DNA from: Dictyostelium discoideum | Lineage: Eukaryota | DNA length: 64,000 nt | Direction of reading: 5' to 3' | Assembly (NCBI GenBank): GCA_000004695.1 | Contig: CM000155.2 | Location: 128,001 to 192,000, forward strand | In this document: positions 10,461 through 10,680 of the stretch, piece after piece | Layout: every line of letters begins with the position of its first letter | Position numbering within the stretch: position 1 is the first letter of the stretch | Program-made: the position numbers and the translations under genes | Notes under the pieces: generated by a model | Told to the model about the DNA's origin: nothing | Database searches by the model: none | What the model saw: only the letters and a program-made list of their open reading frames with translations

Positions 10461-10680
10461 TGGGGCAATGGTGGGGTTTTTTTTTATTTTTTTGGATTAT
10501 TTTTTTTTTTTGGATTATTGCTCTGCCAAGAATTGCAATAATCCAAAAAAATTCTTGCTCTGCCAAGAATTGCAATCCAAAAAAAATAAAAAAAAACCAC
10601 CATTCCTCTGGGGAATTTTGTTGGATTATTTTTTTTTTTTTTTTGGGTTGCAATTCTTGGCAGAGCAACAAAATTCCCCG
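10461..10680. repeat. Cluster of nested inverted and direct repeats (foldback/MITE-like element)
   Basis: Direct copies of 'TTGCTCTGCCAAGAATTGCAAT' at 10519-10540 and 10556-10577, and its exact reverse complement 'ATTGCAATTCTTGGCAGAGCAA' at 10647-10668. A 14-bp inverted repeat 'GGGGAATTTTGTTG' (10610-10623) / 'CAACAAAATTCCCC' (10666-10679). A 'GGATTATT' motif occurs three times. 'GGCAATGGTGG' (10465-10475) is partly inverted against 'CCACCATTCC' (10597-10606). Confidence 0.7.

Follow-up and report, generated by a model that had tools for sequence, protein, structure and literature searches.

The repeat-rich island at positions 10461–10680 is probably (at a rough probability of 0.7) a young, neutral structural variant of the AX4 lineage of Dictyostelium discoideum, and not a gene or a mobile element. 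Comparison of orthologous sequences indicates that it lies in a fast-evolving, A/T-tract-rich intergenic spacer and was most likely built by template switching combined with small tandem duplications. All positions refer to the window, which is the whole 64-kb stretch of AX4 DNA that was analyzed, unless another assembly is named. The creation of a hairpin by template switching is a known kind of event, and the island is probably a new instance of it. No positive evidence for a function of the island was found.

The island is part of an intergenic spacer of 1,024 bp (9911–10934) with one gene on each side, both on the minus strand. The upstream flank is a class I SAM methyltransferase gene (10935–11991; exons 11991–11206 and 11013–10935, separated by an (ATT)n-rich intron), and the downstream flank is DDB_G0291340, a gene for a GPR180/TMEM145-type seven-transmembrane (7TM) protein (8448–9910; exons 9910–9214 and 9013–8448). 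After splicing by eye, the 7TM protein is identical to DDB_G0291340 of D. discoideum AX4. About 235 nt separate the island from the methyltransferase stop codon on its upstream side, and about 550 nt separate it from the DDB_G0291340 start codon on its downstream side. The initial annotation described it as a 220-bp unit with more GC than its surroundings. The GC excess is evident (31.8% at 10461–10680 vs. 13.8% elsewhere in the spacer), but positions 10461 and 10680 are not natural boundaries, and the GC-richer zone extends over about 10255–10800 (25.5% GC). Three ORFs overlap the island. Their translations are F/K-rich and of low complexity, and a Pfam search of these three ORFs gave no match above the cut-off, such that their earlier dismissal as artifacts of the repeats was right.

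The repeats that had been reported for the island all recompute. The 22-mer TTGCTCTGCCAAGAATTGCAAT is present twice on the plus strand (10518–10539 and 10555–10576) and once in inverted orientation (10647–10668), the inverted copy having one mismatch, with 21 nt (10648–10668) matching both direct copies exactly. The 22-mer had no match in 100 shuffled windows. A separate, perfect 14-bp inverted repeat, recovered by exact-match enumeration of 10440–10720, is formed by GGGGAATTTTGTTG (10610–10623) and CAACAAAATTCCCC (10666–10679), of which the right arm is specific to AX4. The hairpin previously given as 'ggattattgc...gcaataatcc' belongs to a perfect inverted repeat of 17 bp on the plus strand (TTTTTTTGGATTATTGC at 10505–10521 and GCAATAATCCAAAAAAA at 10535–10551) that encloses the first copy of the 22-mer, and the 'attcttg...caagaat' pair was likewise recovered. 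If mismatches are tolerated, the longest pair of arms has 43 nt on each side and is 93% complementary (10552–10594 and 10629–10671). An outer stem of 26 nt with 85% complementarity pairs 10467–10492 with 10579–10604. Tandem Repeats Finder (TRF) identified two tandem duplications on the plus strand, namely one with a 37-bp period at 10514–10585 (2.0 copies, 89% matches), which yields the second direct 22-mer, and one with an 18-bp period at 10482–10519 (unit TTTTATTTTTTTGGATTA; 2.1 copies, 95% matches). A 9-bp inverted repeat on the plus strand (ACCATTCCT at 10599–10607 and AGGAATGGT at 10711–10719), with GAATGGTGG at its inner end, is ancestral and also present in two other D. discoideum assemblies (L007 and L005, described below). 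The concentration of such repeats is exceptional within the window, where 24 of the 29 G/C-containing inverted 12-mer pairs spaced within 400 bp fall in a single 500-bp bin, that of the island.

The proposal that the island could fold into an extended stem-loop as DNA or RNA was borne out, with z-scores of −7.5 to −9.3 across the RNA and DNA folds. Compared with shuffled controls, the RNA fold of 10440–10780 has z = −7.9 on the plus strand and −7.5 on the minus strand, and the DNA fold of the island has z = −8.8. The main hairpin reaches −60.7 kcal/mol over 136 nt (−0.45 kcal/mol/nt; z = −9.3), and the small hairpin around the first 22-mer copy (10503–10553) reaches −21 kcal/mol as RNA (z = −6.4). 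As DNA, the island is predicted to be capable of extruding a cruciform or hairpin, and it may stay unstable.

For comparison, the orthologous locus was obtained from eight further assemblies (L001–L008), which were reached via the 7TM protein cluster. The spacers were compared by motif searches, dust-filtered BLAST, and a MAFFT alignment of AX4, L007, L005 (with its inversion undone), and L008. Gene order is kept across the related assemblies, except that D. citrinum lacks the methyltransferase gene. Spacer length varies widely among relatives, with D. firmibasis at about 575 bp and D. dimigraforme at about 2.8 kb. The assemblies differ from the window by substitutions at 0.03% for L006 (D. 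discoideum, GCA_054883475.1), 3.1% for L007 and 3.4% for L005 (both D. discoideum, L005 being GCA_054859385.1), 4.2% for L008 and 6.0% for L004 (both D. cf. discoideum), and 10–13% for L001–L003 (D. dimigraforme, D. firmibasis, and D. citrinum). The local tree from the pairwise matrix is ((AX4,L006),(L007,L005)),L008,L004.

Among the nine assemblies compared (AX4 included), the 22-mer triplet is restricted to AX4 and L006. These two are 100% identical over the 281 nt of 10440–10720, and L006 belongs to the same lineage as AX4 and does not represent an independent one. In L007 and L005, the motif occurs once each, in the diverged form cTTGATCTGCCAAGAATTGT(A/G)ACCC, which is orthologous to the inverted copy at 10647–10668, and long stems are missing. 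L008 has one copy that is more diverged still. In L001–L004, the searched motifs have no exact match and the core block has no blastn hit. The equivalent stretch folds with z = −2.85 in L007 and −2.6 in L005, compared with −7.9 in AX4, and the signal in these two assemblies is ordinary pairing between A-runs and T-runs. This spacer, in AX4/L006 and in L005, is the only place within about 105 kb of orthologous sequence with G/C-containing inverted repeats of at least 13 nt.

The material specific to the AX4 lineage is mostly the reverse complement of its own neighborhood. MAFFT and BLAST against the rest of the region delimit a lineage-specific block of about 99 nt (10498–10596) that holds both direct 22-mers and stands in place of about 19 nt (cgcaccaaatcgaaaccaa) of L007 and L005, directly beside GAATGGTGG. 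The resident arm on the plus strand (10629–10671), the putative template of the inverted copy, includes the ancestral 22-mer copy (10647–10668) and a T16 run, and has single orthologous copies in L007, L005, and L008. Within the block, the 40 nt at 10555–10594 (plus strand) are a 95% reverse complement of 10629–10668, located 35 nt away. This primary inverted copy serves as the 5' arm in the main hairpin. The other direct 22-mer is linked to it by the 37-bp tandem duplication, and 10518–10538 is the perfect reverse complement of 10648–10668. At two positions that read A and T in L007 and L005, all three AX4 copies have C. The ancestral 5' flank TTCTTG persists in copy 2, and the resident copy now reads TTGTTG. 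The shared substitutions, together with the flank retained in copy 2, imply that the copies derive from the resident copy of AX4, postdate the split of the AX4 lineage, and predate the change that perfected the 14-bp repeat. Given the local tree, a gain in AX4 is the parsimonious polarity.

Three smaller AX4-specific changes around the block also supply the reverse complement of a neighbor. First, GTGGGGCAATGGTGGGG (10460–10476, plus strand) contains an 11-nt addition identified by MAFFT, and AATGGTGG (10467–10474) is the reverse complement of CCACCATT (10597–10604), a pairing that lengthens the outer stem. Second, TTCCCC completes the CAACAAAATTCCCC/GGGGAATTTTGTTG repeat. Third, AAAATTCCCC-GTAA-T12 stands in place of an A22 run (plus strand, about 10670–10698), and this gives the CGTAA-T10-TTACG mini-hairpin at 10679–10698. 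Since all of these changes are reverse complements of neighboring sequence, every derived change lengthens a stem. Such a signature is left by template switching and quasi-palindrome correction (PMC5453318, PMC8794818, PMC8604942), and template switching is on record as a source of perfect hairpins and even of new miRNA hairpins (PMC5453318, PMC8794818, bioRxiv 10.1101/2023.04.19.537475).

These patterns suggest a history in three steps. In the first, a nascent strand would have switched template during replication and copied about 40 nt of 10629–10668 in reverse complement, thereby producing the arm at 10555–10594. The new copy may then have been duplicated in tandem with a 37-bp period, as would the adjoining T-run/GGATTA unit with an 18-bp period. 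Finally, three small changes, resembling quasi-palindrome correction, would have turned the flanks into the reverse complement of their neighbors and extended the stems. By manual reconstruction, the structure needs at least one switch, two tandem duplications, and three small inverted copies, and a single clean switch path was not found. Reverse-complement matches that contain G/C explain only about 60 of the 99 inserted nt, the rest being ambiguous, simple T-run/GGATTA material, and the microhomologies at the junctions are short (GGTGG/CCACC and GGATT/AATCC). Parts of the surrounding sequence, and not just the inverted copies, are missing from the outgroups L008 and L004, so the polarity rests mainly on L007, L005, and the shared substitutions. 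Alternatively, it is possible that the polarity is opposite, with a palindrome lost in the stem of L007 and L005 and gene conversion among the AX4 copies.

The putative template-switch origin has parallels among the short template-switch mutations described by Loytynoja & Goldman (2017; PMC5453318) and Monttinen & Loytynoja (2022; PMC8794818). In those mutations, as in the island, a reverse-complement copy is taken from a few tens of nt away, a clustered complex change in one lineage creates or perfects a hairpin, and several nearby changes raise self-complementarity. However, the AX4 island stacks several events, including the 37-bp and 18-bp tandem duplications, and no one four-point switch covers everything. 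Its copied stretch of about 40 nt is also near the upper range of lengths, and the mechanism is deduced here from sequence. The island illustrates how a single step may give rise to long perfect stems where the genome is extremely rich in A/T.

The spacer has also been rearranged in a second lineage, and the four D. discoideum assemblies (AX4, L006, L007, and L005) contain three structural alleles of it. Compared with AX4, L007, L008, and L004, L005 has an inverted segment that corresponds to 10303–10493 and overlaps the left edge of the island. This inversion involves 219 bp. Positions 5361–5579 of L007 align in reverse to 5584–5381 of L005, and both flanks align directly. Both breakpoints in L005 are duplicated in inverted orientation, giving the structure X-rc(Y)-rc(S)-rc(X)-Y. 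Here, X is GAATGGTGGTTGGTTTCGATTT (22 nt), which is present in L005 at 5350 (+) and 5563 (−) and is single-copy in L007, and Y is AAAAAAGTGAAAA (about 13 nt), which is present in L005 at 5595 (+) and 5369 (−) and has one site in L007, reading AAAAGTGGAAA. This arrangement matches the pattern known for staggered-break inversions (Ranz et al., 2007, PMC1885836), and, judged from its sequence, the L005 allele fits either staggered breaks or a replicative switch. The likeness to the inversions of Ranz et al. (2007; PMC1885836) lies in the inverted duplications at both breakpoints. The Drosophila inversions extend over kilobases to megabases, compared with 219 bp in L005, and the parallel concerns the L005 allele, seen in one assembly, and not the AX4 island. 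L005 and L007 differ by just 1.2%, so the inversion is recent and independent of the AX4 event. A modest value of the locus is that one species provides a natural three-state example, consisting of the ancestral form, a hairpin of more than 40 bp built from reverse complements, and a 219-bp inversion with inverted duplications at its breakpoints.

The AX4 insertion junction, directly after GAATGGTGG, lies inside X, which makes GAATGGTGG a rearrangement site common to both events. The junctions of the two independent rearrangements are about 13 bp apart or less. The chance of such proximity in a spacer of about 960 bp, with several pairs of junctions available, is roughly estimated to be of the order of 0.1–0.2. 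This coincidence suggests a fragile site in the spacer, and is statistically not compelling. The initial annotation offered three identities for the island, namely a miniature transposon remnant, a structured ncRNA, and a replication or recombination hotspot. The hotspot came nearest and is partly supported, with three alleles in four assemblies and neighboring junctions in its favor. The AX4 repeats look like a product of instability rather than its original cause.

There is a small chance that the island regulates a neighboring gene in cis, either as an upstream module of DDB_G0291340 (about −550 to −790) or as a 3' element of the methyltransferase, with factor-binding sites amplified in AX4. 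The putative sites in that case are GGTGGGG (two copies), GGATTATT (four copies), and the 22-mer. In Dictyostelium spacers, blocks that contain G/C are often regulatory, and the island has a stop codon on one side and the promoter of the neighboring gene on the other. In addition, the neighboring blocks at 10255–10425 are kept in D. cf. discoideum and, at the level of motifs, in D. firmibasis. However, these conserved blocks are outside the island, which is itself the least conserved stretch of the spacer, and the adjoining block is inverted in L005, in which the gene is still present. Moreover, the identity of about 94% in block A equals the locus-wide divergence, so it indicates no special constraint. 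Special conservation of 10296–10425 was considered and rejected, as its identity of about 94% to D. cf. discoideum is that of the locus as a whole.

For RNA genes, searches of the whole window found no Rfam family at the gathering level and no tRNA or tmRNA. Dictyostelid Class I RNAs, as Kjellin et al. reportedly described them in 2021, combine the 11-nt motif CCUUACAGCAA with a DUSE ([AT]CCCA[CT]AA) located about 60 nt upstream. The motif is absent from the whole window with up to one mismatch allowed, and no DUSE is present in the spacer. Position 12544 has the nearest DUSE match, and the window contains fewer matches than expected by chance. The suggestion of a structured ncRNA is not supported, as the structure is absent in conspecifics that are about 3% diverged, it belongs to no Rfam family, there is no DUSE or Class I motif nearby, and it matches none of the miRNAs checked.

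A more specific possibility, to which we give a slim chance, is that the island is a newborn hairpin-RNA gene (a proto-miRNA or a source of siRNAs). The spacer would then be transcribed, DrnB/RbdB would dice a perfect stem of about 25 bp, and the resulting small RNAs would act in cis or in trans. The stem in question pairs 10552–10576 with 10645–10671. Such a gene is compatible with an origin by template switching, and the two readings differ in that this one claims a present function. A transcript of the spacer, if there is one, is predicted to form a stem of about 43 bp that includes a perfect duplex of about 25 bp and may serve as a substrate for Dicer. In plants, the inverted-duplication model accounts for the origin of miRNA hairpins. 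The criteria for D. discoideum miRNAs are a folding energy below −0.2 kcal/mol/nt, at least 10 reads per arm, common 5' ends, a 2-nt 3' overhang, and DrnB dependence (PMC6161686). At −0.45 kcal/mol/nt, the main hairpin is far past the first of these. De novo miRNAs that arose through template switching are known from the literature (bioRxiv 10.1101/2023.04.19.537475), and the sub-threshold Rfam matches of the island are all to generic miRNA-precursor models, but the best permissive match (MIR9471) scores 49.8 bits against a gathering score of 150. Similarly, miRNA loci of D. discoideum mostly lie between genes and have, at their start site, a T-run that precedes a G, and such junctions are present on both strands of the island, but this motif is nearly uninformative in an intergenic region with 86% A+T. 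The structure is not conserved within the species, the stems being missing from strains about 3% diverged. The core sequence does not occur among the hairpin sequences supplied with Liao 2018, in the text and supplements of Meier 2016, or in any searchable full text, a comparison that did not extend to the 17 miRNAs of Avesson 2012. Liao 2018 and Meier 2016 are deep small-RNA screens of laboratory strains.

Compared with the de novo miRNA hairpins described previously (bioRxiv 10.1101/2023.04.19.537475), the island is likewise young, lineage-specific, and intergenic, with near-perfect arms and ample stability for Dicer processing. It differs in that it is known from DNA sequence alone and is absent from the published D. 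discoideum miRNA sequences compared. A slimmer chance still may be given to the idea that the AX4 hairpin is a newborn Dicer substrate, made by template switching within the last ~3% of divergence and now between birth and fixation or loss, with the hairpin-free ancestral allele in other wild strains. If true, this would provide a natural before-and-after pair for the birth of a de novo small-RNA gene in Amoebozoa. Under the preferred reading as a neutral variant, the lesson is one of caution, in that a strong fold z-score in a Dictyostelium spacer should be backed by comparative data before it is taken as evidence of an RNA gene.

It is very improbable that the island is a MITE-like or foldback transposon, or the remnant of one, that entered this spacer within the AX4 lineage. 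The island is small, non-coding, and rich in inverted repeats, its presence is polymorphic between strains, and the D. discoideum genome has little-studied families of DNA transposons (Tdd, DDT, and thug). However, the hallmarks of an insertion are lacking. The proposed search for target-site duplications flanking 10461 and 10680 was run and found none, and there is also no direct target-site duplication at 10498/10596, the flanking repeats being inverted and not direct. The empty site is not clean, with about 19 nt in L007 and L005 where AX4 has about 99 nt, and other AX4-specific changes are scattered over 10460–10698. Furthermore, the inserted arms pair with resident sequence outside the block (10555–10594 with 10629–10668) and not with each other, and the substitutions that set the resident copy of AX4 apart recur in the inserted copies. 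At both ends, the block has homopolymer runs (TATTTTT... and ...AAAAAAAAA) and no terminal inverted repeats.

The known elements differ from the island in corresponding ways. MITEs and the foldback (FB) elements of Drosophila are also short, non-coding, and polymorphic between strains, with dominant inverted repeats and internal sub-repeats, whereas the island has no target-site duplication or defined termini, has no other copies in the window and the related loci, and derives its arms from resident flanking DNA. The multicopy DNA transposon thug-S is a source of miRNAs in D. discoideum (PMC4894637, PMC6161686) and thus a repeat-associated source of hairpins in the same genome. Unlike the island, which is 0.2 kb, non-coding, and confined to a single locus within the sequence searched, thug-S is a gene-bearing element with an intron.

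The search for further copies covered the window and the related loci. No additional copy with up to three mismatches was found in the 64-kb window, and, apart from the L006 ortholog, no exact copy was found in about 105 kb of the eight related loci. Outside these sequences, the 21-mer has only two exact matches, both in metagenome contigs with the same unrelated flanks that are not A/T-rich. The two metagenome matches fit chance, as the expectation for that collection is estimated to be of the order of one chance match. The miniature transposon remnant of the initial annotation is thus not supported, with no target-site duplication, clean empty site, or termini of its own, and no other copy in the window and related loci. 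By itself, the reading as a neutral variant is of little consequence, and its use is to clear a false lead (a mobile element or an ncRNA gene) from the spacer upstream of DDB_G0291340. Finally, A/T-rich palindromes are difficult to clone and to assemble, but an assembly or cloning artifact of the AX4 reference has almost no probability, since all 281 nt of the island region are identical in the independently assembled L006.

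In the D. discoideum assembly GCA_054859385.1 (L005, 5350-5610), a 219-bp segment of the spacer between the class I methyltransferase gene and the 7TM gene DDB_G0291340 is inverted relative to AX4, to another D. discoideum assembly (L007), and to both D. cf. discoideum assemblies (L008 and L004). Its counterpart is window 10303-10493. The breakpoint sequences, of 22 nt and approximately 13 nt, are both duplicated in inverted orientation. This inversion is known from that one assembly only.

The exact 21-mer of the repeat core in the AX4 foldback island also has exact matches in two JGI metagenome contigs (L009, 6491-6511, and L010, 773-793). 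These matches represent one unrelated sequence that is present in two metagenomes and lacks flanking similarity to the island. The matches were judged to be chance occurrences. At window 10460-10476, two GGTGGGG motifs lie 11 nt apart in AX4 only; L007 and L005 have a single GGTGGAG. The pair has a putative likeness to the G-rich boxes that G-box binding factor recognizes in Dictyostelium.

Promoter-proximal blocks containing G/C (e.g., GGAAATAATTGGGTGG, ATTGACCAAATTTT, and AAGAAGGCAACC) are found at window 10255-10425. These blocks are kept in D. cf. discoideum, are recognizable in D. firmibasis (L002, 5590-5700), and may be cis-elements of DDB_G0291340. Their conservation is no higher than the locus average.

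In every assembly except that of D. citrinum (GCA_054859325.1), the methyltransferase gene comes before the 7TM gene. D. citrinum lacks it (L003, 3792-6001): the spacer there is 2.2 kb, and a tblastn search across the whole 13-kb locus gave no match to the methyltransferase. In D. cf. discoideum L008, the 2.7-kb spacer includes a fragment (4868-5185) with 55% identity to methyltransferase residues 220-288, probably a partial duplicate or pseudogene. The spacer of D. dimigraforme (L001, 1240-4062) is enlarged to 2.8 kb and has no ORFs of at least 80 aa. The AX4 methyltransferase gene has one intron (window 11014-11205), which is an (ATT)n/(TAT)n microsatellite nearly throughout; the six-frame ORF continues across this intron, where it encodes a run of Leu and Ile (poly-Leu/Ile). 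The window's direct-repeat signal comes mostly from two long trinucleotide arrays, namely a (CAA)35 array with 92% matches (34494-34598) and a perfect (TAT)47 array (35176-35317).
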